Below are positions 5,951 to 63,937 of a stretch of DNA of 64,000 nt, one piece after another; the first letter of the stretch is position 1, and the number at the start of each line of letters is the position of its first letter. The stretch is taken from the NCBI RefSeq assembly GCF_018977255.1, contig NW_024704742.1, positions 72,666,001 through 72,730,000 of the forward strand, given 5' to 3'. The position numbers and the translations under genes were made by a program. The notes under the pieces are model-generated. The model ran no database searches. It was not told the DNA's origin and saw nothing but the letters and a program-made list of their open reading frames with translations. This stretch comes from Callorhinchus milii. Taxonomy: Eukaryota.

Positions 5951-7989
5951 CTTACAGTATATCTTATGACTAGCTTTGAGACTGTAAACAATGTGATAAG
6001 GCACTATATCAAATGTAAGGATTACTGTATTATTTGTAGATTCTGAGGTTTGTGCGTAATGTTAAGAATTACCTCTATTGTGAGGTTCTAATTGGAATGT
6101 TTAAAAAGTGATAATAATCTTTGCATTTACTGTACCGCCTTATCACATGGTTGAGAAGTCTCAAAGCATTTTCCTGTAAAGTGCAGCGACTATTTGTGGG
6201 TGAATGTGGTATCCAATTTGAGCACAGTAATGTCCCACAACAGCCAATGAAGTAAATGATACAGTTGAACGAGGAACCAAATGTGAACGACTTGAGACGC
6301 ATTCGACTACCACATTCACGGTTTCAATCTAACCATTTTTAAAACAAAATGTAATGGTAGGAGATCACTCATTAAATACTATAAAACAAAAAACGTATTC
6401 TGGAATTCTGATGGCAATGCCAGTGAACTGAGCAAGCATGGATAGTTCAGGGCACGGTGTTCCACACTATTCCAGTGTAAGGACAATAATAGCTCGACTG
6501 AACTGCTTTACAATGACCTAAATGCTCACTCAGTAACAAAGTCTTTAGTATCTCTAAATACAGAGGCCTCATATAATCATTGGAGACTATTCTCACAATA
6601 ATTAACACCAAACCATATGACTTATGACAGTGAGCAGGTGAGGTAAACCATTCCCTGGCCTGCTTATATTCTTCTAACATTGAATTGCATGGAAGACAAA
6701 TTCAGGAACAGTCATCCTATAAAGTTCAGTGGCGCTATAAATGAAAACTCAACAGGGCCTTCGTAAAATCCCAGGAAAGTTGTACCCATAACTGGAACAG
6801 TTGCTATTGTATATTCATGCCCTGAGCAGACAGAAAACAATACCTCAAAAGGAGCTGCAGAAAATAGACTCTTTCTTCCTCTCCTCCCCATAAAATTCAA
6901 GAATTCTTCATAGGCACAAACAAGTAAAATAATCCCCTGTTACACCCAATCCCAGATGGATATCTTTAACAGGCATTTAAGGCTTGGTAATTCTGCAGCA
7001 AAACCTTGCCTGTCCATTGGAGTTACTAAGGTCACAAAATGGCTCTTAAATTTAGAAGATGTAATGAAGCACTTTGTGTTTTAAGAATGTATAACACTTA
7101 AAACTACTTATCTCTTGGATTTGGGCCAATCTTGAAATTAGTATTAACTGCACAACACTTGTGTGTAGAGTCTTCTCTATCAGTTACAACTAACTCAAAG
7201 GCCTTTCAACGCAAGGATGACAGTCAAACGATTTGACTGGCCAGAACACTAGCAATTTTAGCACTTTATTGTTTTTAAAAAGAATCACTCTACCTCTTCC
7301 CTCCTCTCTTCCCCTATCTCCATTTCTTGTAAAACATGCAATTTTTTTTCCTGTGCATTGGACCATTGTTATTACAAATATTGTGCAGCAATTGCAATGT
7401 TACAGATCATACAGGCAACTGGGAATCAAACTGATAGTTGGAGATTACCTGGTCCTAAGCCAAAACAGTTTTGCTTTAAGCTTTAGTTGGTGCTTTACAT
7501 TGAAGCCTCACCCTTCACTAATTCCAAGAATTTCTTGGTCGACCAAAATGTTAAATCAAATCATAGTAGATGCTTCCTTAAGTTTCAATTCCAAAGCTTC
7601 ACTACCTTCCAAACATAACCAACCTACTAGGCTTTGCTTCTGAAACCAGGTACATAGAGAGTTAGCAACTCAATAAGATAGACTAAAGTAACCAAACCAA
7701 AAAAATTACAATTACTTTCAGACAGCAGGCAGCAAAAAAAGTTAGTGAAATGTCAGCACATCACCATCGTACTCTATAATCCTAGAGTGTAAACATCACT
7801 TCCTCTAAAATGAGTTTGATATTCTTAGGTTGTATTTTATTAGTCACATATAAATGTATGCCTCAGAAGATCTGAAGACTGGTTAAATATGCATAAATGT
7901 CAGCTATTGTACAGAAGTTGTTTCTTTTGGCTTTGCTTTATTAACAGATAGCAACAAGGTTTATAAGTCTTACTGCTCAATAATACTAT

Positions 7990-8286
7990 AATAATAATCC
8001 TTGCATTTGATATAGCGCTTTTCACGTCTTCGACGTCTCAAAGCGCTTCACAGAATATACTTTAAGGTGAATTGATTGCATATTTGTGCACGAAACGCGG
8101 CAGCCAGTTGCGCACAGCAGTGTCCCGCAAACAAGTGACCAATTTATTATTGTGTTTCTTTTCTTGAGGGATTATTATTAGGTGTGTGGAGTAAGGAAAC
8201 TTGCCCAAGGTTTTGTCCTGCTGGGAATCAAACCCAGATCTCTCGCTTGTGAGGCAAGTGCTCTAACCACTGAGCTACAGGATGCC
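7990..8286 (-). mobile_element. tRNA-Ala-derived SINE
   Basis: Reverse complement of the 2477 family, from (AAT)nCCTTGCATTTGATATAGCG to CACTGAGCTACAGGA. Confidence 0.88.
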
Positions 8287-9676: not shown

Positions 9677-11274
9677 CTATGTAAATAGTCCAATAGTGCA
9701 TTCTATCCAAGATTACACATTATTCCCTGGATACAACAACATCTTGCGTTTATGTAGCGTCTTCACACGTCCCTTAGCGCTTAGAGATTGAAACCAAAAG
9801 GTTGTCTAACTCAGGAAAAAGCTTAAAACAATCCCAAGTCAACCACAGCGCAACTGCCTTGACATGTCATCTGCAATATCAAACTGACCAGGATTCTTGC
9901 CAAGCTTTCCTCCTCTAAAAAATATGGATGATCTTCCTACATAAAAGTTTGAAGAGATTTAGAAATATTCTTAGAAGAAATGGGGCACACTTCCATTTTC
10001 TGCTAACCCTCTTGGCATAATGGTGATCCATATTATGCCATCTGAATAGCTACACTAGGGGGCTTTTGGTTTGTCATCAACACAGTGGAGGAACAATTCT
10101 TTTAAACCAGGGCAATCACAGTAAGGGGATGTTAGCTGAAACCTTCTTTTAGAATATCAAAACACGGTCCTGATCAAATTAAATAACAGCACTATTTCCA
10201 CTTCATATCAGAGATACACAAATAGATAAAGAGTAGATTCAGTACAATGTCAGCATTGATGTTGGATAGTTATTGACACAAATAAGTTCACTATTTTGCA
10301 GATAAGAATGCTTGTAAGAATGCCCTCCAGACCTCAGAGCTCCACCAATAATCCAGCACCATATCAAAGCAGGTACAAATTAACTTTTCATTGCAGCCAA
10401 CTACGACATTGCAAAATTGTGTATACAGTACAACTAATAGGAGATGCATTTAAACTTCTTTTAAGAGTCTCAAAACTCAATATTGTAAATGCCTGCAACT
10501 GGCTCACAATTTAACCTAAAGCCATGAACCTTCTGTCAAGGAGTTCAGCAAGTTCTGATTGACCTCCTTTGTCTATGCAAGAGTGACACAGCCAGAGAGG
10601 CTGCTCAAAATAGTGCACTAATCTTTAGGATATTAAACCATGCACTTAAACCCTGCAATGTTATAAAACATATTTTAAATGTGTCTAAAGAATTGAGCAA
10701 AAGTTAAAATATCCAACTAAACAAGTTTTAAATGTCCCAGCTAGGAGAAGATTTGAGTTTGCTGCCAAGAGAGATATTGAAACCACCACAAAATCAGATA
10801 TCTTTACAAGCCACTTAAATGGTACACTGGGCCCTCTTAAGAAACTTGAGCAGCTCCCAGAGTAAATCCAGGATCAGACATGCACAGCACAGAGAAATTC
10901 AACAAGGGCAAGCTAAAGGTGACAAACACTAAGAATTCACTGCCTTCAACAGAAGCAAGACTACAGCAGTTAAGACACCAGAAGAGAACATGCTCCAGCC
11001 AGCACTAAACATTCCACAAGTATTGCCTTTGCTTCCACTTTTAGCAGGTTAGCTTTGCAAGAAATAACCCTAATGCAAAGTGATCAGAGGATGAGTCACT
11101 CTACTGCCTTTTCTAGCCCCCCCACCCCAAATCCACTCAAGACAGTCACACCAATGCTGACACAGTGGTTGAATTTGATCCTGCCTAGTGTCACTGAAGA
11201 ACTTGTATGTCAAACAGTCTGCACATTACTGCAGTGGCCCTGGAAAGGCAAGCCTCAAACATGTGTCACAAGAT

Positions 11275-36477: not shown

Positions 36478-36790
36478 GGAGTCCTGCAGCTCAGTGGTTA
36501 AAGCAATCGCCTTGCAAGCGAGACACCCGGGTTCAATTCCAGGCAGGGCGAAACCTTGGGCAAGTTTCCTTACTCCACACGCCTATTAATAATCCCTCCA
36601 AAACAATAATAAATTGGTCATTTTCAACCCACGACTGTTTGTGGGACACTGCTGTGCGCAATTGGCTGCCGTGTTTCGCCCACAAATATACAGTCAATTC
36701 ACTTTACAGTATATTCTGTGAAGCACTTTGAGATGTCGAGAAGACATGAAAAGCCTATATCAAATGCAAGGATTATTTATTATTATTATA
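36478..36790 (+). mobile_element. tRNA-Ala-derived SINE, near full length
   Basis: GGAGTCCTGCAGCTCAGTGG...GGTTCAATTCC...GCTGTGCGCAATTGGCTGCCG...(ATT)n. Confidence 0.9.
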
Positions 36791-39700
36791 AAATGATGTG
36801 ATTCAAAATTATAATCAAATGCAAGGATTATTTTTTATTGGACATGGTCTCATCTGAAAAAGATGAAAACCTTGTAATATCATTTGTGACTGGTCTCAGC
36901 AGCCTGCAGATGTTCCTTCTTTATGTCATCGCACTTATAGATTACAGTTCTTAATTGGCTCTCTTCCCTTCAAAAGCCACAAAGTGTACAAGGACAAGTG
37001 AGTGGTCCCATGGCAGCCAGATCACTATGGTTCGCAACTGCAAGACAATTACTTGTTCTTACAAAGAATGTTAGCTATCTTTCTCCAGCATCCAAACCCA
37101 CGTGGAACTAAATTTGCTATCCATTTAGCGAGACATTTGAAGACTCAAGTTATTATACCCTACCTACGTGAGACTGTAACCAGCACAGAAACCAACCACA
37201 GTCGCTTCACCTCCCCAGATCAGTGATGGCATGTTAGATTGATCAAAAAAAACAGAACATTAAGGTTGAATTTTAGAGATTTCCAATTTCAAGATCAGAC
37301 AAGATATTTACCACGTCCAAAACACCATGGCTTTAAAACTTCACATCACATCAGCGTAGCTCAATTGTATTTTCCTCCCCTCCCTCTGGTTAACCAGCAT
37401 AAACGACCCATTTTAGTAGATCATAAAAAATGTATTACCAGAGTACTATGTGACTAAGTATAGCAGCCAAAGCAAAACTAAAATATGCAATCTTTAGAGA
37501 TGCAACCATATAAGCAAACATCCTGATATCAGCATGCAGCGCAGCAACAAATTATTTTCATCAGCTCTAGAACTTCACAAACAGCACTAGACAGGCTGGA
37601 GAAAGTCACATTTTAAGCATCCCCATACAGCCAACAGTCGTGGATTGAAGTGACCAATTTTATTATTTTTAAATGTAATCTTGTTGAAGTTGTTGTTGTA
37701 GATGGACCTTGGTCTTTTTTCATCTAATATTTCTTATGTTCTTATTCATTACAACAACCCTAGAAAATACAACAGGTTGCTCCTTTGTAATAATAATTAT
37801 TTTGACCTTCAAAAATCATCTGTCATGGGGTCCACCTGAAATGAGATTTCAATCAAGGGGATAGAGAAGAAATCTACAAAGCATTTAAGAAAGTGACTGA
37901 CGGCATTTTTTTTAGTGCAGTTCCTCACTTACTCTCAAAAATAAATCACATGTTAAGAACTGAAGCAAGTCAAGTTAAACTGTGATTGATATTGAACTAC
38001 AGGTCAGCAAAGTATTACTTCAAGGCCACTAAAGACCAGTGAAACACAAACTATGAACACTACAAACCTCTCAGTCTCTCAAACATTGCATTGTCATTTA
38101 TACTGGGAATATATTTGGCATTAATTCTCATCACCAAATAATCTACAAAAATAGCAAAAACAGCTGTAAAGTAGGATTGTTTGAAGTAAAGTCGACACGT
38201 GGCAGAAATATCCCTTTTTAAAGCTTGCTTGGAAAGAAAAATGCTTACTGTTATTACTGAAGACATCCCCATTGGACCATGAAAAATGAGTACATTTTTA
38301 AAAATAAGCCAATCTCCCTGCTGCTTAAATTTACCACAAGAGATAGATATTCGCAGAAATAACCCTATATATTGTACAAGCATACATCAAGGTCCTAAAG
38401 TCAAATAGACAAATTTCTGCATATATTTTACTGTAAAACATTTTCCAGATATTAGAGCACTAAAAAATGTTCAGTTTAAAACCATTCCTCCAAGTCAATT
38501 TCAACAGAGTAAGAATGTCACTCATGGAAAGAATTAGCTCAAATTGAGCTTGAACAGACCCAGGGACAAAGACCTATGTGTTCAGTATTACCTCTTCACC
38601 GAAAGGTTTCACTGGTTTATGATGCCCACCTTTACATTGTGTTTTTGCCAAGTGTTGTTCACATTTATTTCAGAGTTCACTCGTTACTTAACCAGCCAAA
38701 ATCTGTCAGATAGATTCACTGGTGAAACCAACATTGATACTTGTGCAATTTGTCCACCCAAGTTAATGATTGATAAATTATAGTACACCTCAAGGTCATC
38801 TATAGGCTTTCCAGCATCCACCTGTTGAGATGCAGATAAGACGGAGGCAAGGTCTTCAAATATTGGTTGATACAAGTGTACAAAAGTTGGAATACTAAAC
38901 TAGGTGGTTAGATCAGGCAAACTAAAGATTCAGAAGGTGTGTTGGGTGGGACAAATAATTCAACACCTCTACTGAGACAAGGCAGCAAATCTTTACTTCT
39001 ACATTTGGTCAATTCTAGGTGTCTTGGTTAATCACACTTTGACAAGAAATCTTGTCATAACAAGGCAATACATTAAGAACAGTCTTATCTGTTTCAGCAA
39101 GGTGGCTGGTTGGCTAATCAATGCACAATTAATTGAATATCTTTGTGGGCAATATTTTCACCCACAATATATACAGTCAATTCACTTTACTGTATCTTCT
39201 GGGAAGCATTTTGAGATGTTTTGAAGATGCGATTAGGTGCTATATCGCCCACAAACATACAGCCAATTCACCTTACATTATATTCTGTGAAGCGCTTTGA
39301 GACATCTAGAAGATGTGAAAAGCGCTATATCAAAAGCGAGGATTATTATTAGATCAAATGTAAGGATTATTATTATTAATGGAGGTGTGTGCCTGAGCCT
39401 GCATCTTTGTAGCCCAAACTCAAGTGGTCCTAAACAGTGGAATGTTGAGACCTCATTTCCAATAGGACTCACTTCCCCCCCCCGCCGCCCCCATGTCAGT
39501 CGACCTTGGCCTGTCATATCCCCCAAACAATGAAAAATGATTGTGAAGCATGAAGATAACCTGTGGAATAATGCCACAAATTACAGATTTCTCTACCAGC
39601 TCTATTGAGATCAAAGATTGAAAAATATGCTAAACAAAATATTTTCTGAGGGATTACTAACTGAAAATTGAACTTGTAAATCCATGGGACCCAACAGGCA

Positions 39701-42280: not shown

Positions 42281-44254
42281 TATTCATACAAAAGCTAATT
42301 TTCATTGTATGAATAGATTAGGTGTTTTCTTAAAACTGCCTTGGCACTGATGCTTTTGTTCAACAAGTGCCACTTCTGACAATGCAGAGATGAAGGCAGT
42401 GCTTCCTGATAGGTGCCCCAACACCTACCAACCAGTTTTACCACCTCTTGTGCACCCATGCAAGAAAATCACCAAAGATTTTCAAATAAAGCCCTGACTG
42501 TCTGTTGCCTGAACAAGACAGTGGAGATTGGATTTAACGTTGAATAATGGAAACATTCAAAAACTTTTTGGACAGCATTCCCATTGCTGCACTTCTAAAT
42601 TCTCCAAGTAGGTTTAATCCCATCTGCTCTTTCGGGACTGTGCCTCCTGTTTTTGGGATGATGGCCTCCAATCAACTGTTCTGAGGAAACCAAGAATAAG
42701 TGACATATATTCACATCTCCCCATAATTGTTGCTGGTTTAGCCAAAAGGTACCGCTTAATAGCTTCTAGATTTTATGCACAGATCATATATCAAGTCACA
42801 CAAAATGATATATTGTACTATCAATATTTGAGTTGATATCTTCCTGTTCCAGTTTTTTTTAAAGTTCAGGCTGGATTAGATAATCTAAAATATTATTCAA
42901 CATAATTGCAATAAAAAAAACAATGAATTTCTCTCCTCTGTGCCCAACCCTCAGTATTTATTTTAAAAACAGATTTGTAAAGTAAATAAATAATCATTCC
43001 ATTTCTATAGCAAATATTCTCTGCTGAAATATTCTACAAGCTCCAAAGGAGGTCAGTGCCATATATCATAAATATCAAATTCAACTTAAAATAAGGAAAT
43101 GAAACAAGTATGTTAGATTAGGCTTATTTCTGGTCACTGCAGCTTTAAACAGGGCACGTACTATATGAACCACAGAGTAAAAATGTTGCAATTTCCTCTT
43201 TCAAAGCAAACTAAGAACATAAATAAAGTTAGTGTTCCTGGCGTCTATACTATCAGACATATTGGCAATAGATGCCAAGTTTATTACCTCTACCACTTAA
43301 TCAGAAATTTAGAAATAGATAAGAGCAAGATGGGTTGACTCATAAGTTGAGTTTCTTCAGTTTCTAATTATATTGCTGTGAAAAAGACAACTGAGGTGAA
43401 TAACAGACAACACTGAGTGATAACTAGAGTGGATTCATGAATCTTGTGCGTGCATTCAGGTCTAAAGCTTCAGCATCAATACAACATTAGAATCTCAGAT
43501 TTCGATCGAAAAATCAACAGGAGCATCTGGTACTGCTTCTACTGCTTCCAAATAAGCTTGGCAAGCCAATACAAAGCTGCCTTTCATTTCAGTTCTCTTC
43601 ATATTCTTTTTCTTGTAATACAATCCTGCATTCATGCAAAGGAAGGAGTAGTTTATCTCAAGTAACATGAATGGAATGATTTCAGGATTGAGATGCAACA
43701 ACAAAAAATACAGCACAGGTAGCACTTACAGGTGTATTGTTTAAACCATTCTCCCCATTGACAGCGGTGTTCTTGCTGATCACGTGTGTCTTCTAGTTCA
43801 TGTCTTGTTGCTGCTCTCCATGCACAGGCAATTCAATGGCAGAGTGGATTTCTATCATTACAAACTGAACTTGACATGATGTGGCACAGATTTTGCATCA
43901 AATGTTTAACCATTCCACCTCTCAACAAAAATAGCACTGCCATCTAAGGGGCATGTGGTATGAAACTGAAATACAGTGAACTCGTTACTCCAAGGGAAAT
44001 TAGTTTATTCTAAATGCAGCCAGGATATTGACAGCATGATGACTTAAGTTGTAGTGTCAAATTAAGACAGGGTTGAGTTAGCTGTACCCTGATAACAGTT
44101 GATTACACCAAAGTCACATGAATGCACTACTGTGAGACTAGATCTATTTTCTGTATTCACCTATGACTCCAAGCCAGACACAGACACAAAACAACCAGGG
44201 TATAAGATAACAAAAGTGATGGAGTTTTGCGACAGGCCATGTGTTAACAATGAA

Positions 44255-45360: not shown

Positions 45361-46840
45361 AACGGTGATCTAACAGCCTGGAAGCCATCTACATTAAGCA
45401 CAGGAAGCCAGGTACAGGTATTCATCACTGGAAGATGGCTGGGCCATGCTTCTGGTTAACACTGGTCTTCAGGTCCACAGTGCTTTAAATGAAGCTGAGC
45501 TATAGGAGAGAGGTGGCCTCTGCAACAATATTGTACTGTATGCAAAAAGCATAAATGCCCCAGTCCACTGTCAATACAAACAGGAATTTCCCCAGTCAGT
45601 AAACCATGTTTCACCAAATAGCAAGTAATCTATCCTTGAATGGGCAACAGTGAACTTTTGGCATGGTACATTACATTACCTCATAAAAATGGTTCAATCT
45701 TTGACCAAATTGCGTCCCTCCAGCCCCAAGAGATGGTCTCAATACAGGATTTCCTCTACAAACACTGCATATTGCTAGTAAATTTTAATACTAATCCATG
45801 CAGCTCAGGCCCATCATTTTGCAGGCTGTCAGACAGACAGCAGACTGCATGCCTCAATGCACTCCCAACCTCCTACAAGAAAAGCTGATTCTTAAGCAGT
45901 GTGTTACAGTGACCAATGTAAGCAGCTTGATATTATGACTATCATTTTAGCTGATTAAATGGGAGGCAACACTAGGCAGATTACGGATTGCAATTCTCTG
46001 AACAAATAGAATAAAAAGGCAGCCGTAACAACAAAATAATTGTTCATATGGTTCCAGCCATTAACAAAAAATTGCTTTTATCTAGTGCCTTTCACATCAG
46101 AGGATATCCGAACGGCGTCCCGCCTGTCTGTTCAGCTTGATGTGAAAAAAAGTCGTATATCATGATTCAAAAGCAGAAATTTCTCTCAGTGTCCTGGCCA
46201 ACAAAATGCAGTCACAATTCAGTTTTGGCTTACACACATTTTATACCAGATGCAAGCTTATTTACTTCCACATATCACCCTTGTGGATTGTTAGTCTGCT
46301 TTACGATTCAGGAGGATATGAAGGAGCTGTCCTGCCACTGCTATTTCAAAGTTGTTCCCCCCTGACTTTCCTTGTGTATATTCCCCACTCATCTGAGTTT
46401 ACACAGAATACAATTTAACTGTCTATTCATTTCACCTTTTGAGATATTGTCAGAGTAGATTAGCTGCTGCATTTGCCTATATAACATTTACAAAACAGTC
46501 ACTCCACTTTACAGTGTATCCTGTGAAGCACTTTGAAACATCCTCCTGATGTGAAAGGCACTGTATCAAATGCAAGGATTATTATTTTTAAGCCTTTTAT
46601 TTTACATGAAAAGTGCTATACAAATTACTATTATTCTGTGAGGTACTTTAAGATATTTCAGCATTGTAGGTCCTAGAAAAATGCAAGTTCATCCTTATTT
46701 GTCCTAAACTGGCGTGGGAATGCTCCTCAGAGGCTGCTACAGGGTCATTCTAGCCTGGTATGACACAGAGCTTTGGCTTCCACTTTAAAAAAACAACATA
46801 CTGTGCTGCCTTCAGATAAAAAGACGGGCTTGTTGGGTGT

Positions 46841-48574
46841 GCACAGCTCAGGCTCAGCTCAAGCACAGCACAAGCTCAGCACAGCACAGTTCAGCACAGG
46901 CTCAGCACAGGCACAGCTCAAGCTCAGCACAGGCTCAGCTCAGGTTCAGCACAGGCTCAGGTTCAGCACAGTTCAGCACAGGCTCAGCACAGGCACAGCT
47001 CAAGCTCAGCACAGGCTCAGCTCAGGTTCAGCACAGGCTCAGCACAGCACAGGCTCAGGCACAGCACAGGCTCAGCTCAGGCTCAGCACAGGTCAAGCTC
47101 AGCACAGGCTCAGCTCAAGCACAGCACAGGCTCAGCACAGCACAGGCTCAGCTCAAGCTCAGCACAGGCTCAGCTCAGGCACAGCACAGGCTCAGCTCAG
47201 GTTCAGCACAGCACAGTTCAGCACAGGCTCAGCTCAGGCACAGCTCAAGCACAGGCACAGCTCAGCACAGGCTCAGCTCAAGCACAGCACAGGCTCAGCT
47301 CAAGCACAGCACAGGCTCAGCTCAGGCACAGCACAGGCTCAGCACAGCACAGGCTCAGCTCAGGCACAGCACAGGTTCAGCACAGCACAGCTCAGGCACA
47401 GCTCAAGCTCAGCACAGGCTCAGCTCAGGTTCAGCACAGGTCAAGCTCAGCACAGGCTCAGCTCAAGCACAGCACAGGCTCAGCACAGCACAGGCTCAGC
47501 TCAGGCACAGCACAGGCTCAGCTCAAGCTCAGCACAGGCTCAGCTCAGGCACAGCACAGGCTCAGCTCAGGTTCAGCACAGCACAGTTCAGCACAGGCTC
47601 AGCTCAGGCACAGCTCAAGCACAGGCACAGCTCAGCACAGGCTCAGCTCAAGCACAGCACAGGCTCAGCACAGCACAGGCTCAGCTCAGGCACAGCACAG
47701 GCTCAGCTCAGGCTCAAGCTCAGCACAGGCTCAGCTCAGGCACAGCACAGGCTCAGCTCAGGCACAGCTCAAGCTCAGCACAGGCTCAGCTCAGGTTCAG
47801 CACAGGCTCAGCACAGCACAGGCTCAGCTCAAGCACAGCACAGGCTCAGCACAGCACAGGCTCAGCTCAGGCACAGCACAGGCTCAGCACAGTTCAGCAC
47901 AGGCTCAGCTCAGGCACAGCACAGGCTCAGCTCAGGTTCAGCACAGCACAGTTCAGCACAGGCTCAGCTCAGGCACAGCTCAAGCACAGGCACAGCTCAG
48001 CACAGGCTCAGCTCAGCACAGGCTCAGCTCAGCACAGCACAGGCTCAGCACAGCACAGGCTCAGCTCAGCACAGCACAGGCTCAGCACAGGCTCAGCACA
48101 GCACAGGCTCAGCTCAGCACAGCACAGGCACAGCTCAGCACAGGCTCAGCTCAGGCTCAGCACAGGCTCAGCTCAGGCTCAAGCTCAGCACAGGCTCAGC
48201 TCAGGCTCAGCACAGCACAGGCTCAGCTCAGGCACAGCACAGGCACAGCTCAGCACAGGCTCAGCTCAGGCTCAGCACAGCACAGGCACAGCACAGCACA
48301 GGCTCAGCTCAAGCTCAGCACCAGCACAGACTCAGCTCAGCACAGGCGCAGCTCAGCACAGCACAGGCTCAGCTCAAGCTCAGCACAGGCTCAGCACAGC
48401 ACAGGCTCAGCACAGGCTCAGCTCAGGTTCAGCACAGGCTCAGCACAGCACAGGCTCAGCACAGGCTCAGCTCAGGCTCAGCACAGCACAGGCTCAGCAC
48501 AGCACAGGCTCAGCACAGTTCAGCACAGGCTCAGCTCAGGTTCAGCACAGGCTCAGCTCAGCACAGGCTCAGCA
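46841..48574. repeat. Complex 5/6-mer satellite (AGCAC, AGCTC, AGGCTC, AGGCAC, AAGCTC, AAGCAC, AGGTTC, AGTTC) with a ~350-370 bp higher-order repeat
   Basis: Read directly from sequence; the rare GGTCAAGCTC variant is at 47091 and 47439; an ~80-bp block recurs at 47201, 47571 and 47936. Confidence 0.97.
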
Positions 48575-48949
48575 GCCAGAGAGGAGGCTACTCAGCACCT
48601 CACACCAATGGCTGTTGCTTGTCCTCCTGTTGCAGTTGCCTCACATGTGTGCCCGCTGTCATGCCCCACATGCTGCAGTACGAGCGAGCGCCCGTGTTTG
48701 ACTGTATGAACTGTCACTGCTCACCCCGCACTGAGCAGTCAGCCTGCATGGCTTTAGCTGTGCTTGTGGTTGAACGGGGAAGTGGCCAGGCTTTGCTGTT
48801 CAAAAGACTTTCACCTTCACAGACAATAAAGAATTCATCTTGGTTTGGTTTGCATTGCAACATGTTTCATTTGGGCCTGATGTTATCGTGAGGGAGAGAT
48901 CCAATGACTAAAACAAAAGTAGGCTTGTCCCTGAAGCCTTATTCCAATA

Positions 48950-49250
48950 TACTTAGAAGGATGTTAGGTTACTATTATTAGGATAGACTGGAAATGTTAG
49001 GCCTTTTTTTGCTGGAGATGTTTAAGAGGGGACCTAATAGATGGGCTCAAAATAAAAGGGTTTGATAAGGTTAGGGTTAGGCTGCTGCAACCTGTTGGGC
49101 AACCTGTTGGGCAATCCGTAACCAGACAACACAAGTACAAGATAGCGAGAATTTAGGAGGAACAACTTCACACAAATTTCAGTGAGATTGTGGAACTCGC
49201 TGCCTGAAGCAGTGGTTGAATTAGATAATATAGACGTACTTAAGAGGAAG
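48950..49250 (+). mobile_element. CR1 3' remnant
   Basis: VRLWNSLPEAVVE; GACTGG...TTAGGCCTTTTTTTGCTGGAG as in the 15960 copy. Confidence 0.7.
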
Positions 49251-49254
49251 CCAG

Positions 49255-49840
49255 ACAACAACAACAACAACTTGGATTTATATAGAGCCCTCCACGCCAG
49301 ATGGTGTCTCGGAGCGCTTCACAGCAACAGATCCCGGGGCCGAGCCAGGGGGAGGAAGGTAACCAAAGGAGCGGTCAAAAAGAAAGGTCTTCAGCAGAGA
49401 CCTGAAAATAGGAAGAGAGGGGTGAGGCGAAGGGAGTGAGGAAGGGAGTTCCAGAGCCTCGGGGCGTAATGGCCGCCGATGGTGGAGCGGAGGATTCAGG
49501 GGACAAGGAGGAGGCCAGATCCGGTGGAGCAAAGGCAATGGGCACTGTTGTGAGGAGAGAGGAGGTCAGAGAGGTAGAGTGGTGCAGTGGAGTGGAGGGA
49601 TTTGAAGACAAGGGTGAGGATCTTGAAGTCGATCCTCTCTGGGACAGGCAGCCAGTGCAGTCTGGCAAGGACTGGGTAATCGGGGAGCGGAGTTTGGTGC
49701 GGGTGAGAATGTGGGCGGCAGAGGTTTGGATGATCTGGATTTTATGGATGGTAGTGGAGGGGACAGCGGTGAGGAGGGCATTTGAATAGTCCAACCAAGT
49801 GGTGACAAAGGCATGGATCAAGGTTTCAGTGGCTTTTGGA
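49255..49840 (-). mobile_element. L2 3' fragment, second L2 family
   Basis: ETLIHAFVTTWLDYSNALL...LKTFLFDRSF; distinct tail GCCCTCCACGCCAGATGGTGTCTCGGAGCGC with (CAA)n. Confidence 0.88.
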
Positions 49841-50069
49841 ATGAAATCTTCACATGAGGGAGAGGAGAATAGAAGAGTATAGGAGGGAGTGAGGAGTGGG
49901 TGGAGACTCATATGGAATATAAACACCAACACACACTAGTTCGGCTTAATAGCTTGTTTCTGTGCTGTACAAACTATATCTGCCTGGGTAGGTATTGGTA
50001 AGGGTGAGTAGCTATTGAGTGGATGAGGGAGTGCCTATCCTTGTGGGGAGGTAAGCAAAGTCTTTTGGA

Positions 50070-50570
50070 GTTGAGCTGGCAACAAGATGGCGGATTTGGC
50101 AGATTCGAATCACCCCTCCGTGGTGGTCTCGGTAGTCCAGTTCCTAAGCCAAGGGTCGGCAGTATTCCAGGGCACTGCTCATGACAGATCAGCCAGCTTG
50201 GCTCATTGGCAGAAGTTGGAGGGGCAGACCAGTCACTAGGGCAGGGACTTCTCCCATTCAGCTCCTGATATTCTTGACTCTGCAAACTAAAGCCCTAACA
50301 GGTAAAGTGGACCCATTAGAGCTTTGACTTGCAGAGTCAGGGTTAACAGGAGCTGAGTGGGAAGCACTAGTTGGACAAGCAGTGGGAAGCTTGCCAGACA
50401 GTGTTTCAATAGCAAGCTATGCAGTTTTAGTTGGTTAAACTCCAGTACTACTCCAATGCACACTCTGGGGTTCCCAAGCCTTGGCTCTTGCCAACCTATG
50501 CCTATTTAATTTATAGCAACATTCTCCTTAATTAGGTGAGCAGAATGTGCGCCCCTCCAAGGAGAGAGTA
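50070..50570 (+). repeat. Unclassified interspersed repeat, copy 4, with internal inverted duplication
   Basis: Aligns with copies 1-3; carries CAAGATGGCG (YY1-like) near its 5' side and a fold-back at 50253-50361. Confidence 0.75.
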
Positions 50571-50649
50571 TGTATTCCACTCCAGACACGGAAATCTCTG
50601 TGTGTCGGTGGCGTACAAAAATAATGACAACTTGCATTTTTTAAACAAT

Positions 50650-51190
50650 ACAATTTACATTTATATAACACTTTTCAAATTGGGAGGACCCCCAAAGCAC
50701 TGGACATTCCAGAGTTTGTACCTGAGTTGGGAGTAGGAGCTAAGTAGTTTGGGGGTGGAGGGTGGCAAGGTGAGTGAGGGTGGAAAAGATGGCTGAAAGT
50801 GCAGTCAAAGACAAAGGTCTTGAGCTGGACCTTAAAGTAGGTGAGGGAAAGGGCGATGTGATGAGTCTCTGGGATGGAGTTCCAGAAAGCAGGAGCAGAT
50901 AAGCTGAAAGTCCAACATCTGATGGTGGGCAAGTGGGTTTGGGGTACAAAGCACCATTGCTTCCTGAGTGGAGGGAGTGGCTGGGTTTGTACAGAATGAG
51001 GCAGTTATGGAGTTAGGGTGAGGCAAGACCCTGGAGATATTTAAAGGTGAGAACAAGGATCTTGAACCCGATTCACTGGTGGTTGGGGAGCCAGTGGAAT
51101 CAGGAGAGGATGGGAGTGATAGGCTCATGGAACCTGGTGCGGGAAAGGCCAGGGGCTGCAGAGATTCTGATGGGAGCCAGGCGGGAGAGC
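50650..51190 (-). mobile_element. L2 3' fragment
   Basis: FSLSAPAFWNSIP...FKVQLKTFVFDCTF. Confidence 0.8.
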
Positions 51191-51879
51191 ATCTGTATTG
51201 CTGATGTTCGACTGAAGAAAGTTGGAGCTCATCCAGGATTTGATGTCCTACAAGCAATACAGTACCTTTCAACGAGATAGCAGAACTCCATCTAGTTTAA
51301 GTACTCTTAAACATAGTGATGGATTTCCACATGTCAGACCAGCTGACCAAAACATTGGGTAAGGCAGTCATCATTTCCAAATTCTGACTTAATGTTAATC
51401 ATAAGACCAATTGTTTTGTGAGCAAGGAAAGGATAGGACAAACTTGTCTACATGTTAAAGCAACATAAGGTGAAGATCATACCCCTGGGCTATGTCTGAT
51501 ACTTCTAAGAGGGCTGCTACAGGGTGCATTAGTTCTGGTCTGAGAATAGAGCACATGCACTACCAGTTCTCCTAGCAACTGACCGTAAATACTGAGAACA
51601 GGGAATGCAAAAGAAAGGGAAATACATACCAAGATATATTACTAGATTCTTTTTCACAAAAAAACATAAAGTACGAGTTTGCAAGACCATTGTAGTGTTA
51701 TACACTTGTTTGTTACATTGTGGCCCATCCACGAATGTAACAAATGCAGAGCACCTTGAAACACAATAAGATTGTTAAGCAATTCCCAGAAGGATGACAA
51801 TAGATTCCGCTCATTTTTCTTTCTTGCTCTTTTTTTCTGTCTTAAGTGCTCATTATTGGTAAATCACAGAAGTGTAACT

Positions 51880-52067
51880 TCAACAACAACAGCAACAACA
51901 AGATTTCATTTATAGAGTGCCTTTCACGTCGGGAGGACGTCCCAAGATGCTGCACAGTTGGGTCAGGATCCGAGCAGGGGGCAAATGGTCAAGGTGAGGG
52001 GAGGGAAGGGAGGGAGCGAGGAGGGGGTAGAGAATCGAGAGGGGAGCTGAAGGCACGGTCGAAGAGA
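51880..52067 (-). mobile_element. Short L2 3' tail
   Basis: (CAA)n...GTGCCTTTCACGTCGGGAGGACGTCCCAAGATGCTG, nearly identical to 34570-34620. Confidence 0.85.
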
Positions 52068-52114
52068 ATACTTCAGAAGTTTGTCAAGACTAAAACGACA
52101 AACCCTGTGAAATA

Positions 52115-52560
52115 TAACAATAATAATCCTTACATTTGTTATAGAGTCTTTCATGCCAGGAGAACGTTTCAAAGCACTTCGCATTATTTACTATAAAGTG
52201 CAGTGATTATATATTTGGTGGGCAAACTGAAGCAGCCAGTTGCGCACAGCAATGTCCCACAAACAGCCAAGGAGTTAATGGGCAATTTTATTTGGGAGAT
52301 CGTCGGCCAGAACACCAAAATAAATTATTTTCTCTGTTTAAGTAGCACCATTGGCACTTTTAACATCCAACTGAAAAGGCAGACAGGGCCTCAATTTATT
52401 GTCTCATTCGAAGGACAACACCTCCAACAATGCAGCGCATCCCCAGCACTGAATTCAAGTGTCAGTTTAGACTATTTGAGTTCCAAGTCCCAACATGGGG
52501 CTTGAACCCACCACCTACTTAATCAAAGACAAGGGTACTAACAACTGAAGCTGGCTGACA
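52115..52560 (-). mobile_element. Deu-domain SINE, near full length
   Basis: Tail (AAT)nCCTTACATTTG, core GCAGCCAGTTGCGCACAGCAATGTCCCACAAACAGC, head GGGCTTGAACCCACC. Confidence 0.8.
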
Positions 52561-52599
52561 CATATATGAACATAATTGCGGTAAAAAATGATTTTTGTA

Positions 52600-53010
52600 T
52601 CATGAGCTTACAATATAAAACCAGAGGGGGGATGCTTAACCTGTATAAATCATTAGTTAGTCCCCAGTTAGAGTATTGTGTCAACTGTTGGTCACCCCGC
52701 TTTAGGAAGGATGTCAGGCCCTTAGAGAAGGATCAGAATAGAGGTATTAGGATGATACCAGGGATGATTAGTTCAGCCTACGAGCAGAGGCTAGAGGAAC
52801 TGGGCTTATTTTCCTTGGAGGAAAAAAGTGAGGAGAGACTGGTAGTAGTTTAAAATATTGTGTTTTTACACAGTAGATACGGTGACATTATTTCCACTGG
52901 TCAGTGAAAAGAGGACTTCAATTTAAAATAGTTAGCAAAGAAGCAGAGGGAGTATGTTTTTATATGTAGAGTTATCAGGATGTGGAATGCCCTGCCAGGT
53001 GAGGTCAGAG
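52600..53010 (+). mobile_element. CR1 fragment
   Basis: MLNLYKSLVSPQLEYCVNCWSP...YEQRLEELGLFSLE. Confidence 0.85.
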
Positions 53011-53796
53011 TATTGATAGGCGTCAGTATTTGTTATTTCCTGTTATAAATATTGAGTTTCTCCAAATTATATTCCAGACTTCTATAGCTGTATTCTCCAG
53101 TGGAACCATGCTGTTTTTTGTCTCAGTGATATGATGCAGGTGCCGGTTATGGGACATTCTTGGCATTAGATTAGCTGCCCTTATTGATTTCATATTAAAC
53201 ATTAACATTTTCTGAAAAGCTTTAAATGTTTGATCATAAGGATGCCCTACATTAAATGCTAGTATGAGTTTCTCCCAGTGTCCAGGCCAATAATCCCTGA
53301 AATAAATATGGTCATTCACTCCATGGCTGTTTGTGGGGCATTGCTGAATGCAAATTGCTTGCCATGTTCACACACAGACATACAGTTATTCCACATTAGA
53401 GTAAATCCTGTGAAGCACTTTAGGATGTCCTCCTGAAAGGCACTATTCCAAATGTAAGGATTATTCTTATTAATAGCAAGTATTGCTATCAAAAATAATC
53501 TAATTGATAACATCACTGGTGGAATATTAGTGAGGGATTTCTTAGTGATTTCAGTGCTTTGAGACAATAATCACTATAATCTATACCAGCAATGTCCCAC
53601 AATTGGCCGTAAGATGAACAACCCAATTAATCTTTTTTGGTGAAGTTAGAGGAGGGGGAGATGTAGGCCAAGACTTGAGTGAACTGTCTATTCTTCTTTG
53701 AGATAGTGCCTTTGAATTTTTAATATCCATTTGAATCGCCAAAATGGACAGATGAGATTTCAATTAAACATCTCATCAGAAAGAATGGTACCTCAA

Positions 53797-53990
53797 ACAA
53801 TAATAATAATAATCCTTGCATTTGATATAGCGCTTTTCACATCTTCTAGACGTCTCAAAGCGCTTCATAGAATATACTGTAAAGTGAATTGCTGTATATC
53901 TGTGGCCGAAACATGGCAGGCAATTGTGCACAGCAATATCCCACAAACAATCGTGGGTTGAAGCGACCAATTTTATTATTGTTTTGTTTG
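53797..53990 (-). mobile_element. 3' half of a young SINE nested in an older Deu SINE (~53590-54110)
   Basis: (AAT)nCCTTGCATTTGATATAGCGCTTTTCAC...; older SINE blocks resume on both sides. Confidence 0.8.
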
Positions 53991-54139
53991 GGAGCACAAT
54001 AGAGCACTCCCTCAGTTCTGCATGGGAGTAACGTGTCTGACTTGGTTATAATTTCAGATTGTAATGGAGAGCTCAACCACACAAGCTTCTGATCCAGAGG
54101 CAACAGTGCTACAATGTTACTTCTGTACCTGCCTAAAAC

Positions 54140-54480
54140 GACAACTTGTATTTATATATTGCCCTTCTTCCTGCACGGTGTCACAGAGCGTTTAACAATG
54201 GTGTAGTTTGATGCGGAGCCAGGGAGAAAGGGGAGGAAACTCTTCAGGTGCGATCTGAAGATGGGTAAGAAGGAGGCAAGGCAGAGGGATTGAGGCAGGG
54301 AGTTCCAGAGGTCCAGGCAGAGTAGCTGAAAGTACGACTGTCGATGGTGAAGCGGAGGAGGCAAGACCCAAACCTGCCGAGGAAAGGGGCAGGCAGAAGA
54401 ATTAAGTGTGAGCGGGTTGGATGGTAGGGAGATGCTAAGGCATGAAATGATTTGTAGGTGAGGTGAGGATCTTGAAATTG
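54140..54480 (-). mobile_element. L2 3' fragment
   Basis: LWNSLPQSL...FRSHLKSF; tail resembles the 49255 family. Confidence 0.7.
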
Positions 54481-54842
54481 ATAATTCTGCTAATTAAAGA
54501 TAATTTTATAGCCACTCTAATTCCTGGTGGTTCATTTAGATCATGTAACATTCACATCTATTTTATAAAGTAATTGCTGTTGGTGATTTTCATGTGTAAG
54601 TGTATTTCCCATCTTTTATTTCATTCCTTTAATGCAAGTCTGCTGTAGATCACAAAATCAGTCTTCAACATCTTTCCCTCTTAGTAGTTGGGAAAAATTC
54701 AAAGCATCCATTTCTTAAAAAAATAATCTTGATTAATTTTTGTGGCATTTTATTGCAACTCACTGGAGAACGGGTACAACAGTTAAGGAATTAAATATAC
54801 AGTATTTTGAAAATACTGGAAATGAAGTCTGAGAACTGATTC

Positions 54843-55190
54843 AACAACAACAAATGTAGATTTATACAGCATCTTTCACATCAGGAGGATGACCCAACGT
54901 GCTTGACAGTCCTGGCTTGGCACACAAGCTGGAGGTGGGATCCAAGGAAAGTAGGGGCATGGGGATAAGATGACTGACGGGGCAGTCAAAGAGGAAGGTG
55001 TTGAGGCGGAGCTTGAAAGAGGTGAGGTAGGGGATGAGTCAGAGGGACTCTGGGATTAAGGCAGATTGCTGATAGTGGATAGGTAGGACAGAGAACATGG
55101 AGCAGACCGGGCAGTGATTGCTGAGCGGGGAGTGTGGATAGATTGGTACAGGTTTGAGAAGGTCGCATGGGTGGGAGGGGAGTTGGGGGT
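54843..55190 (-). mobile_element. L2 3' fragment
   Basis: (CAA)n plus TTTCACATCAGGAGGATGACCC tail; AAGAGGAAGGTGTTGAGGCGGAGCTTGAA. Confidence 0.7.
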
Positions 55191-55236
55191 GCTAAAAGTT
55201 ATTTAAATCAATCTGATGGTGATTCCAAGAGAAATG

Positions 55237-55559
55237 TAATAATAATATAATAATCCTTGCATTTGATATAGCGCTTTTCACGTCTTCTTGACATCTCAAA
55301 GCGCTCCACAGAATATATTGTAAAGTGAATTGACTGTATATTTGTGGGCGAAACGCGGCAACCAATTGCGCAGCAGTGTCCCACAAACAATCGTGGATTG
55401 AAGTGAACAATTTTATTGTTTTGTTTTTTTGTCTTTTCTTGAGGGATTATTATTAAGCATGCAGAGTAAGGAAACTTGTCCAAGGTTTCGCCCTGCCAGG
55501 AATCGAACCTAGGTCTCTGGCTTGCAAGGCGAGTGCTAACCACTGAGCTACAGGACTCC
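55237..55559 (-). mobile_element. tRNA-Ala-derived SINE, full length
   Basis: Reverse complement of the 36478 copy, ending CACTGAGCTACAGGACTCC. Confidence 0.92.
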
Positions 55560-55769
55560 ACGTAGAAGATGATATTTTAAATTGATGTAACTCCCTTTCT
55601 CACAATTTGAAGTTACTGTGACACCTGCCTACAATCTCTCCTTTGAGGTATCTGACAATGACTGAGGAATGTTGGTTTGTAGCCAGGTTCCTATTGGTGT
55701 GGCTTTGAATGTCTATCCACCATTGCTCAAGTCAGGATGAGAACTTTGTTCAATCTATGACAGATGGAA

Positions 55770-56350
55770 CTCAAAATGCAAAAAGTGTGATGTAGTTTGA
55801 ATAAATCAGAATAAATTCTTAATGAGAAAAAGCTATGAGTAGTGGCTGAGGAAAACAACTTAGGCATCTAAGTCTACAGGTTTTCAAAAGCTAGGAACAA
55901 ACAGCAATTAAAAAGGCTAATGCGATGTTGGCCTTCATCGCATGACTTTTGGAATAAAAAGCAAGGAAGTGATGATTCAGTTCAGTTGGAGAAATGTGTT
56001 CAGTTCAGGCTGCCACACCTCATGAAAGATATGCTGACCTCAGAGGGCAGATTCACCGGAATATCACCTGGGCGGAAAGGGGCTAAATTAAGAAGAGAAG
56101 CTGGGAAAACTTGGGTTATATTCCCTTGATCTAGGAGTTTCAGGGTTAATCTGCTTGAGGCATTTAAAATGAAAAATGTTTTCCTCTTGTAGGGAATCAG
56201 AATAAGATGATATATAATCTTAAAACTAGAGCTAAGCCACTGAAAAGTGAAATCAGAAAGTATTTTCTGTCACAAAGTGTTGTGGAAATATAGAAGTCAC
56301 TACCTCAAAAGGTTGCAGATGCCAGGTAAATTGGAATATTTCAGAGGGAG
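55770..56350 (+). mobile_element. Highly degenerate CR1 fragment
   Basis: LEKCVQFRLPHLMKD resembles CR1 LEYCVQFWSPH; AAAAAGGCTAATGCGATGTTGG (KKANAML). Confidence 0.55.
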
Positions 56351-56367
56351 GGAGATAAGAAAAACAA

Positions 56368-56664
56368 TTATTATTAATCCTTACATTTGGTATAGTGCCT
56401 TTCATGTTAGGAGTACATCCCAAAGTGCCTCACAGGATAGATTGTAAAGTTTAGGGACCTTGTGTTCTAAGGACAATTTTGTGCCACAAACAGCCATGGA
56501 GTGAGTGACCAATTTTATTTGGGGCATTGTTGGTCAGGACATCAGAAGAAACTCCCTTCTCCCTTCTCTTTTCAAATCATGCCATGGGATCTTTAGAGTC
56601 CAACCGAACAGGCAGACAGGATTTCGGTTTAACGTCTCATCTGAAGGATAGCATCTGCTAGCAC
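56368..56664 (-). mobile_element. Deu-domain SINE truncated at the CR1 junction
   Basis: GCCATGGGATCTTT...GGCAGACAGGATTTCGGTTTAACGTCTCATCTGAAGG, then an abrupt switch to CR1. Confidence 0.8.
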
Positions 56665-58480
56665 CTCTAAGTAAGGTCTTACCAATGATTTATACAGTGG
56701 CAGGATTACCCCACTATTTCAGCTTGCTATTGATATTTTGATACATCCCAACACCTGGTTTGCTTTACTCACTGCCACAGAGCATTGTTTGGAGAGCTTC
56801 AATTTATTATCAATCAAGACCCCCAGGTCCTTTTCATTTTCCATACATATTGGTTTCCTTATGTTCAAATAATAGTCCCTTACAGGATTTTTTGCCCCAT
56901 GTGAAGTACTTTACATTTCTCCACATTGAATTTTATCTGTCACCGATCTGCTCAATTCCCATGTATGTTCAAATCCTCCTGTAATTTATTTTGTTCAGCT
57001 TCACCGAAAGAAGTTCAATGTGTACAGAGTGGTGATTTGGGAGAATCTATTTAATTCTAGATCTCAAAAATGAGAGTCAAATTTACCAAAGCAGAAAATC
57101 AAGCTTTGCAATTCTAGAGCCAACTTTAGTGTAATGCAGTGCTGTGTTGTCAGAGATGCTGTTCTTCGTATGAGACAAACTGAGGTTCTGTTCAAATCTG
57201 CCTGTTTAATCTTGTTCAGCTTTGCAATCTACTACCTTCATTAGCTTGGTGTCATCTGCAAACTTAGCCACTGTGTTTGCGTCTCCTAGTTTCAGATCAT
57301 TTATAAAAATATGAAACAAAAGAGGTCCCAAAATAGACCCTTGTGGAACTCCACTGGTAACATTTTTCCAGTCTGATGACATTCCCTGTACCACCACCTT
57401 CTGGGTTCTTCCGGTCAACCAATTGTGTATCCATTGTAATATACATCCACTGATTCCCGCTTTTTTAGTTTTAGTACCAGCCTCTCAAGAGGAACTGTAT
57501 GAAAGGCCTTACTGAAATCCAGATATACAACATCCACAGCCTTACCCTCATCAAGCTCCCTTGTCACACTGTCAAAGAAAAACAGTAAATTAGATTGGCT
57601 AAACCTTACCTTCATGAACCCATATTGGCTATCATTTATGATTTCTGCCCAGATGCTCCATGATTTTATCTTTAATAAGAGTCTCCATAGTTCTATCCAC
57701 AATGGATGTCAAACTTACTGGTCTCTAGTTTCCTGGGTCACTTTTGTTACCTTTCTTAAAAATAGGTGTAACATTTGCCTTTCTCCAGTCCCCTGGCACC
57801 TCTCTAGTATTCAGTGATCTTTGAAAGATTTCTGCCAGCCTTTCTCCAACTTCCTCCCTTAAGGATGAACCAAAAAAATGTTGGTTACATTAATGGAATT
57901 AAGTTCATTAAGGATCCTCAGATGCAATTTATCCAACCCCTAAGAGTTATTTACTTTAAGTTTACACAGCTGGTTGGCAACCATGCTGGTAATGATATGG
58001 ATAGTGTCACAACTTTTCTCTGGACATCTTTGAGTTCTCTTTCCAGATGAGATAGGTTACCCACCTCCTCCTTGGTAAAGACTGATGCAAAAAACTTATT
58101 TAGCATTATTGCAGCCTGTGTAGAATTATTTGTCATGTTGTCTCCCAAACCCACCTTCAGTGGCTGTATTCCATTGTTTGTTTTCCTTCTACTCTTAATG
58201 TAACTAACTCTTTTTGTTATTATCCTTCACATCTCTTGCCATGTTTAATTCAAAACTTTTTTTGCCATTCTGATGCCTTTTTTGCAATCCAGGCATGCCT
58301 TCTGGTATTGAGTCTGACTTATTTCCATGCCATTTTTCTTCATGGCCTTAAATGCTTCTTTTTTTCCTCCACCAATTTTCCCTCTCCCTCTCCCTTTTAC
58401 CATTCTTACACTTCATGGATTTCTCTCTTCATTCACTTATCTGTTATACAGTAATTTCAAACCTTGCTCCCAACCTCAGT
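56665..58480 (-). mobile_element. CR1 LINE RT region carrying a ~208-bp insert (57002-57209) homologous to 18005-18210
   Basis: [51 protein letters not shown]...KFADDTKL; the insert is flanked by AAGCTGAACAA on both sides (minus strand). Confidence 0.92.
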
Positions 58481-62999: not shown

Positions 63000-63363
63000 T
63001 AATAATAATAATAATACTTGCATGAGATAATTTAACATAGTGCCTTATCACGTCTTCAAAACATGTTTACAACAGAATATACTGTAAAGTGAATTGACTG
63101 TATATTTTGTGGGTGAAACGCGGCAGCCAATTGCACACAGCAGTGTCCCCCAAACAGTCATGGATTGAGTGACAAACTTATTGTTATTAATTGTTTTTGA
63201 AGGAATTATTACCCTCGGAAAAGTGATCTGACAATCAACTAACAACCGGTTCCACTGCTAGGGAAACAGAAGTGTGTGGTGTAACATAACTTTCCCAACG
63301 TTTAGCCCTGCTGTGTATCTCGCTTGCAAGGCGAGTGCTCTAACCATTGAGCTACAGGACTCC
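63000..63363 (-). mobile_element. tRNA-Ala-derived SINE, longer internal variant
   Basis: Head ...GCGAGTGCTCTAACCATTGAGCTACAGGACTCC, extra internal block as at 41960, (AAT)n tail. Confidence 0.85.
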
Positions 63364-63646: not shown

Positions 63647-63937
63647 GAGTCCTGTAGCTCAGTGGTTAGAGCACTCGCTTTGCAAGCGGGAGACCTGAGT
63701 TCAATTCCAGGCAGGGCTGGACACGCCTAATAATAATCCCTCCAAAACAAAAACAATAATAAATTGGTCATTTTCAATCTACGACTGTTTGTGGGACATT
63801 GCTGTGCGCAATTGGCTGCCGCGTTCGCCCACAAATATACAGTCAATTCACTTTACAGTGTGTTCTGTGAAGCGCTTTGGGACGTCCTCCCGACGTGAAA
63901 AGCACTATATCAAATGCAAGGATCATTATTATTATTA
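63647..63937 (+). mobile_element. tRNA-Ala-derived SINE with an L2-identical tail loop
   Basis: GAGTCCTGTAGCTCAGTGG...GAGTTCAATTCC; tail GGGACGTCCTCCCGACGTGAAAAGCAC, then (ATT)n. Confidence 0.92.

Follow-up and report, generated by a model that had tools for sequence, protein, structure and literature searches.

A probably neutral, actively turning-over satellite of the CAGCA/CAGCT family, dense in AID hotspots, in the DNA of a cartilaginous fish

Does a long array of 5- and 6-bp units, nearly all of them carrying an AID hotspot, belong with the immunoglobulin switch regions or with the ordinary satellites? The question is raised by one locus of Callorhinchus milii, which lies in a 64-kb stretch of DNA that was analysed whole (the window). 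A first-pass annotation had read the array as switch-region-like, with a convergent ordinary satellite as its fallback. Here, the fallback is the reading that we favour, on the strength of a unit set that four mutations explain, neutral simulations and a CAGCA/WGCW class of repeats known in mouse. Very probably, the array is a neutral micro- or minisatellite that belongs to the CAGCA/CAGCT family, is actively turning over and lies in non-immune DNA of this cartilaginous fish.

The array and its internal landmarks are located as follows.

46841 to 48574, no strand assigned: tandem array of shuffled 5/6-mer variants, in 320 units that follow the pattern A[-/A/G]G[C/T][A/T]C.
47139 to 47296, plus strand: perfect internal block of 158 bp, which recurs 370 bp downstream (47509-47666).
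47509 to 47666, plus strand: the 158-bp block again; 119 bp of it are found a third time at 47896.
48317 to 48349, plus strand: three single-copy variant units, AGCACC, AGACTC and AGGCGC, grouped near the right end, two of the three without RGYW.

The array is 1,734 bp long in the assembled sequence, with 61% GC and a single CpG. Tandem Repeats Finder (TRF) calls it at 46844-48573 with periods of 11 and 16 (scores 1466 and 1237), in agreement with the coordinates 46841 to 48574 first proposed. Its repeat character is far above chance, one 15-mer being matched 82 times against 0.01 expected. Splitting 46841-48574 into units yields mainly AGCAC (111), AGGCTC (75), AGCTC (62) and AGGCAC (24), followed by AAGCTC (13), AGGTTC (11), AAGCAC (10) and AGTTC (7). 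The rare units are AGGTC (2) and one each of AGCACC, AGACTC and AGGCGC, plus two cut end units.

Eight types account for 313 of the 320 units, so the earlier description of a string of eight main 5/6-mers with RGYW and rare exceptions holds. The exceptions that it listed are confirmed for AGGTC (twice), AGACTC and AGGCGC; a supposed ACC unit parses instead as AGCACC, in which AGCA is kept. The plus strand is C/A-rich and the minus strand reads GAGCT/GTGCT/GAGCCT. The latter had been called G/T-rich, correctly in view of its make-up of G 35.8%, T 28.3%, C 25.0% and A 10.9%, with a one-sided G skew of 0.18. It contains, however, only one GG and no GGG, GGGG or GGG(G/C)T pentamer.

The 119-bp perfect block recurs at offsets of 365 and 735. 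Higher-order duplications of about 365–370 bp, marking recent events, are observed directly in the assembled letters, as is the unit anatomy. The plus-strand frames are all open (645, 700 and 629 aa), but they repeat the same peptide words and match no Pfam family, and a coding reading of the array was rejected. CACAG, the start of the RAG heptamer, occurs 145 times in the array and CACAGTG is absent from it.

Counted on the plus strand, RGYW is present in 315 of the 320 units, and its density is 182 per kb in the array versus 33 per kb in the window outside it. The two-strand hotspot WGCW is found 198 times, in 62% of the units, with AGCT contributing 75. The AGG- units and AGTTC are without it, so 38% of the units lack a two-strand hotspot. 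The claim that nearly every unit keeps an RGYW/WGCW hotspot is therefore true of RGYW and untrue of WGCW. As directly counted, WGCW reaches 11.4 (11.42) per 100 bp over the array and 12.3 in its best 400 bp, compared with 2.1 in the rest of the window. WRC is found 198 times on the plus strand and 317 times on the minus strand.

Tandem repeats rich in WGCW are a known class in mouse, where they are defined by a TRF score of at least 100, a length of at least 400 bp and at least 2.0 WGCW per 100 bp (PMC4532491). The array has scores of 1466 and 1237, a length of 1.73 kb and 11.42 WGCW per 100 bp, by TRF settings slightly off the defaults of that paper. Such repeats of at least 400 bp occupy 2,753 of the 1.2 million mouse autosomal 2-kb intervals, with CAGCA as the commonest motif (PMC4532491). 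At the mouse rate, about 1 in 14 windows of 64 kb would contain one by our own arithmetic.

Like the non-Ig WGCW pentamer repeats of mouse, the array is made of tandem 5-bp CAGCA/CAGCT units, exceeds 400 bp and has no Ig locus in sight. Unlike them, it mixes 5- and 6-bp units, reaches 11.4 WGCW per 100 bp where they have as many as 19, and belongs to a cartilaginous fish. Searching the mouse paper's supplement gave no repeat sequences for comparison (PMC4532491). On all three counts of the definition, the array belongs to this known class.

Possible relatives were sought by several searches. Those of protein sequences with a 200-aa piece of the array translation returned 1, 8 and 59 matches, and nine of the ten looked up were contig products. 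Several contig-product matches share peptide words with the array, a hint at the level of predicted peptides that such repeats recur. The array pattern was found in no viral contig and, as a 36-mer, in no metagenome; as a 20-mer it gave two isolated single matches and no arrays in the metagenomes.

The only named protein matched by the array translation, among 8,000 candidates scored, is a GLI2-like gene model of the sturgeon Acipenser sinensis, MGH0169970.1, whose record is flagged UNVERIFIED_CONTAM. Its middle is a GLI-type zinc-finger protein, the gene of which we take to be GLI2, and the second finger gives way to a low-complexity tail. This tail is 51% identical to the array translation and has 65 six-residue words in common with it. 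As read from the protein model alone, the sturgeon repeat would, like the array, be consistent with AGGCAC/AGCTC units. Unlike the array, it belongs to another lineage and apparently to a different locus, since no GLI exon was found in the window by tblastn with the sturgeon GLI part (best E 3.3).

The sturgeon model is truncated after the second finger and runs on into the repeat (residues 569-810), and its N-terminus (1-95) is also a translated tandem repeat. The simplest reading of its sequence would be that the gene model strays into an AGGCAC/AGCTC-type intronic repeat at a developmental gene. As a gene model, it is probably an annotation error.

How could so many units have kept RGYW? 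The 313 units of the main types fill eight of the nine cells of a 3x3 table, made of the prefixes AG, AGG and AAG and the suffixes CAC, CTC and TTC. Four mutations plus exchange inside units thus explain the unit set. The near-universal RGYW follows from the four founder mutations and the shuffling of units, and the 320 units are copies rather than independent retentions. One random mutation of a founder unit keeps RGYW with a probability of 0.40–0.62, and among all primitive repeats of 5- or 6-mers 28–34% have it on one strand. None of the four amplified changes destroys it, whereas three of the four rare ones do.

Neutral slippage was simulated at the nucleotide level from a founder with RGYW, and the runs ending with at least 98% RGYW were scored. 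With four amplified mutations, these made up 2 of 34 runs, and, in a larger set run under progressively stricter limits on rare mutations, 23 of 568, 18 of 249 and 14 of 122. Overall, 98% RGYW was attained in 4–12% of the four-mutation runs. The level of at least 98% was reached in only 0.5% of 1,649 matched runs by a cruder unit-level simulation with little inside-unit exchange, and in 0 of 139 and 0 of 38 runs with five and six amplified mutations, respectively. Because these two variations fall short, the neutral reading depends on the four-mutation history, which is the parsimonious one.

The retention of RGYW among the variants is accordingly unusual to a mild degree, at about 1 in 10 to 1 in 200 according to the model used. 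The motif was picked after the array had been seen, and among 3,456 degenerate 4-mers of equal specificity there are 74 whose fit to the array is as good as that of RGYW.

Some factor other than AID, for example a DNA- or RNA-binding protein or a hairpin-biased expansion, might have constrained the variants, which we regard as improbable. The low probability of the retention under the neutral models (P of about 0.005–0.12) is in line with such a constraint, and so are 148 YGCY and 68 TGCTGA motifs on the minus strand and the folding of a 300-nt minus-strand stretch with a z of -3.3 versus shuffles. We assume YGCY to be the MBNL motif and TGCTGA the Maf motif. Motif matches come cheap, however, when 74 equally specific patterns fit the array, and the amplified AGTTC, AGGTTC and AGGCAC weaken the hairpins in a substitution test. 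Hairpin-biased expansion as the source of the variants was rejected, because the amplified variants fold worse.

In the neutral satellite history that we prefer, a CAGCA- or CAGCT-type pentamer would have expanded via replication slippage. Four early changes would have been copied along, namely A/T at the variable base, the gain of a purine, G/A at that purine and C to T. Misaligned exchange inside units would then have shuffled the prefixes and suffixes into the eight unit types, and later unequal exchanges would have produced the duplications of about 365–370 bp. RGYW would be widespread since the founder contained it and the changes, mostly transitions and single-base duplications, hit degenerate positions about half the time each. 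Both this slippage history and the lack of function are what we infer from the array.

The surroundings of the array bear on where it came from and what it adjoins.

46488 to 46591, plus strand: tail of the commonest interspersed repeat of the window, left of the array.
48575 to 48975, no strand assigned: right flank, with 55% GC in its first 255 bp.
48976 to 49829, no strand assigned: fragments of retroelements on the right side of the array, with matches to other copies in the window.

The window is strewn with tRNA-headed and reverse-transcriptase repeats. The repeat with its tail at 46488-46591 is presumably of the SINE/LINE type, and the fragments at 48976-49829 are, in our naming, CR1-like and L2-like. 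Six tRNA-like matches (2480-2550, 8213-8284, 36480-36551, 55488-55557, 63303-63361 and 63648-63719) each lie inside a copy of the window's main interspersed repeat and are heads of tRNA-derived SINEs, not tRNA genes. Broken reverse-transcriptase fragments of non-LTR retroelements (Pfam RVT_1) are at 4944-5951 and 57209-57708, both on the minus strand. About 170–200 bp right of the array, 48731-48775 is a short, degenerate inverted echo of its units (BLAST E 0.88, not significant).

Mouse has expanded simple repeats that were born in retroelements, and the array might have expanded inside a transposon or a solo LTR. We hold this to be very improbable. A TATA-like ATAAAAAG at 46816 precedes the array, AATAAA at 48825 follows it, and both flanks are richer in GC than their surroundings, as such an origin could leave behind. 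Yet the right flank (48575-48985) is single-copy in one deep DNA run, giving one contig at 80% likeness with no loose ends. Two runs presumed to be RNA did not cover this flank, which carries no weight on expression. Moreover, neither flank has a second copy in the window and the target-site candidates are of only 4 bp, at chance level. The origin in a solo LTR or transposon was rejected as the flanks are not a dispersed repeat, the left one being judged within the window only, and no target-site duplication was convincing.

No Ig family domain, whether V, C or other, was observed by Pfam among 415 ORFs of the 64-kb window, comprising 412 of 45 aa or more, each repeat-masked over less than half its length, and the three array ORFs. 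This upholds the earlier statement that no Ig exon is visible. The Pfam matches obtained were RVT_1 in four ORFs, one decayed thymosin-beta and four weak ones below the cut-offs. RSS-like sites in the window are at chance level, with three relaxed sites versus 0.9 expected and a maximum of four in 30 shuffles. A crude scan of the window for splice sites of a host gene gave 18 candidates, none convincing.

Three minor frames were seen elsewhere in the window. One at 38687-38899 (minus strand), considered as an exon of a host gene, is a frame of 71 aa that looks coding-like by eye and matches neither Pfam nor a solved structure. Another at 43725-43870 (minus strand) has the consensus-like donor GTAAGTG after a short open frame and is a possible small exon with no Pfam match. 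The third at 10850-11005 (plus strand) resembles thymosin-beta, in a decayed frame that looks intronless (Pfam Thymosin at E 8.7e-5, with a score of 22.6 bits against a cut-off of 24.8), and is probably a processed pseudogene.

Could the array be a true or proto switch region, serving the inter-cluster isotype switching of cartilaginous fish? Mammalian switch (S) regions share AGCT, which forms their cores, and GGGG; G-clusters start R-loops and a G content of 35–50% extends them (PMC4245955, PMC9827813, PMC3840166). Like the mammalian IgH switch regions, of which Smu consists of GAGCT and GGG(G/C)T, the array is of kb scale with two-strand hotspots, and it has 75 GAGCT on its G-richer strand with the one-sided skew given above. 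With 198 WGCW in 1,734 bp, it is indeed a long tandem array dense in AGCT/WGCW. The G content of the minus strand, 35.8%, lies at the bottom of the R-loop elongation range (PMC4245955), and its relevance would depend on which strand is transcribed.

Unlike the mammalian switch regions, the array is devoid of GGG(G/C)T and GGGG, having one GG on the G-rich strand and 36% G versus about 46%, so the G-clusters of a switch region are missing. It has no Ig C exon in the window and no known upstream promoter or I exon, and within these 64 kb nothing places it ahead of a C-region gene in an IgH locus. Its minus strand does have G-runs, 80–150 bp outside the right end of the array (plus-strand CCC/CCCC at 48652, 48664, 48691 and 48724). 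Transcription of the minus strand, if it occurs, could let these runs initiate an R-loop.

The window's strand skew has a bearing on that. With the masked repeats set aside, the plus strand has more A than T over 1–48 kb, and the sign is reversed after 56 kb. This hints at minus-strand transcription of the array, which would leave the GAGCT strand as the non-template strand, as in switch regions. The change of skew within 48000-57000 could itself be a transcription start region or a replication origin; no CpG island was seen there.

G-richness is not indispensable, as the S regions of Xenopus are AT-rich and function without it (PMC4279169, PMC8201067). They lie, however, in the IgH locus ahead of C genes, whereas the array has 61% GC and no Ig gene in its window. 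Sharks switch between Ig clusters by an unexplained route, but reviews describe their Ig loci as being without S regions (PMC4279169, PMC8201067). All IgH isotypes of four elasmobranchs map with TCR-alpha-delta and PSMB5, in the group of human chromosome 14; the elephant-shark VH genes are linked to TCR-alpha-delta, and not all chondrichthyan Ig genes are in the main complex (PMC12227049). The last of these speaks in favour of a switch region. Our literature search, with most subscription journals outside it, found nothing on the array or on switch-like chondrichthyan satellites.

Taken on Ig linkage over the 64-kb window and on G-clusters, the array is not a member of the switch-region family, and we deem a true or proto switch region extremely unlikely. 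The switch-region-like reading of the first-pass annotation is not sustained, there being no Ig exon in the window, RSS-like sites at chance, no G-clusters and no AID-type footprint. As to the last, AGTAC, AACAC, AACTC and AGACAC are all absent from the assembled array, and the only units in it that fit C-to-T at WRC are AGTTC (7) and AGACTC (1), a result that concerns the assembled sequence and not somatic events.

A separate reading, compatible with the neutral satellite, is that the array has no function and is still a real AID off-target fragile site if transcribed in B or T cells. Transcription would then expose WRC cytosines on both strands and lead to somatic mutations, deletions or breaks. 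We consider this possible, though unlikely. The hotspots for it are plentiful on both strands, as counted above, G at the lower edge of the R-loop range and G-runs outside the right end would assist (PMC4245955), and shark AID is an active deaminase that mutates Ig and TCR genes (PMC8201067). In mouse B cells, WGCW repeats of at least 400 bp are present at 46% of 37 reproducible AID-dependent off-target breaks (PMC4532491).

The same mouse data also temper the reading. Smu and 43% of those off-target sites that were reproducible have 19 WGCW per 100 bp, above the array even in its best 400 bp (PMC4532491). AID targeting was detected at only a small fraction of the 2,753 mouse intervals, the repeats being in 6% of 801 and 12% of 284 called sites (PMC4532491). 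Inside the array, moreover, the G-rich strand has no GG clusters. The earlier suggestion that the array could be AID-sensitive hence has published backing, as AID frequently causes breaks in mouse B cells at WGCW arrays of the definition that fits it (PMC4532491).

By itself, the neutral satellite is of little weight, as it adds another WGCW-rich satellite to a class with thousands of members in mouse. It would be of great importance only if sister arrays lie in IgH clusters at switch junctions, since how switch regions arose and how sharks switch isotype are both unsettled. The array family would then be pre-adapted landing pads for AID, whose sister copies in IgH clusters break for isotype switching and were the raw material of the tetrapod switch regions, and this copy would be an orphan, still breaking in lymphocytes. 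We rate this scenario as highly improbable.

More modestly, the array is a usable test case for possible off-target damage to such repeats by chondrichthyan AID, which is active in B cells as well as T cells. In one limited respect it may act like a weak S region: it may, by analogy with the mouse repeats, be an accidental target of AID if it is transcribed in lymphocytes that express the enzyme.
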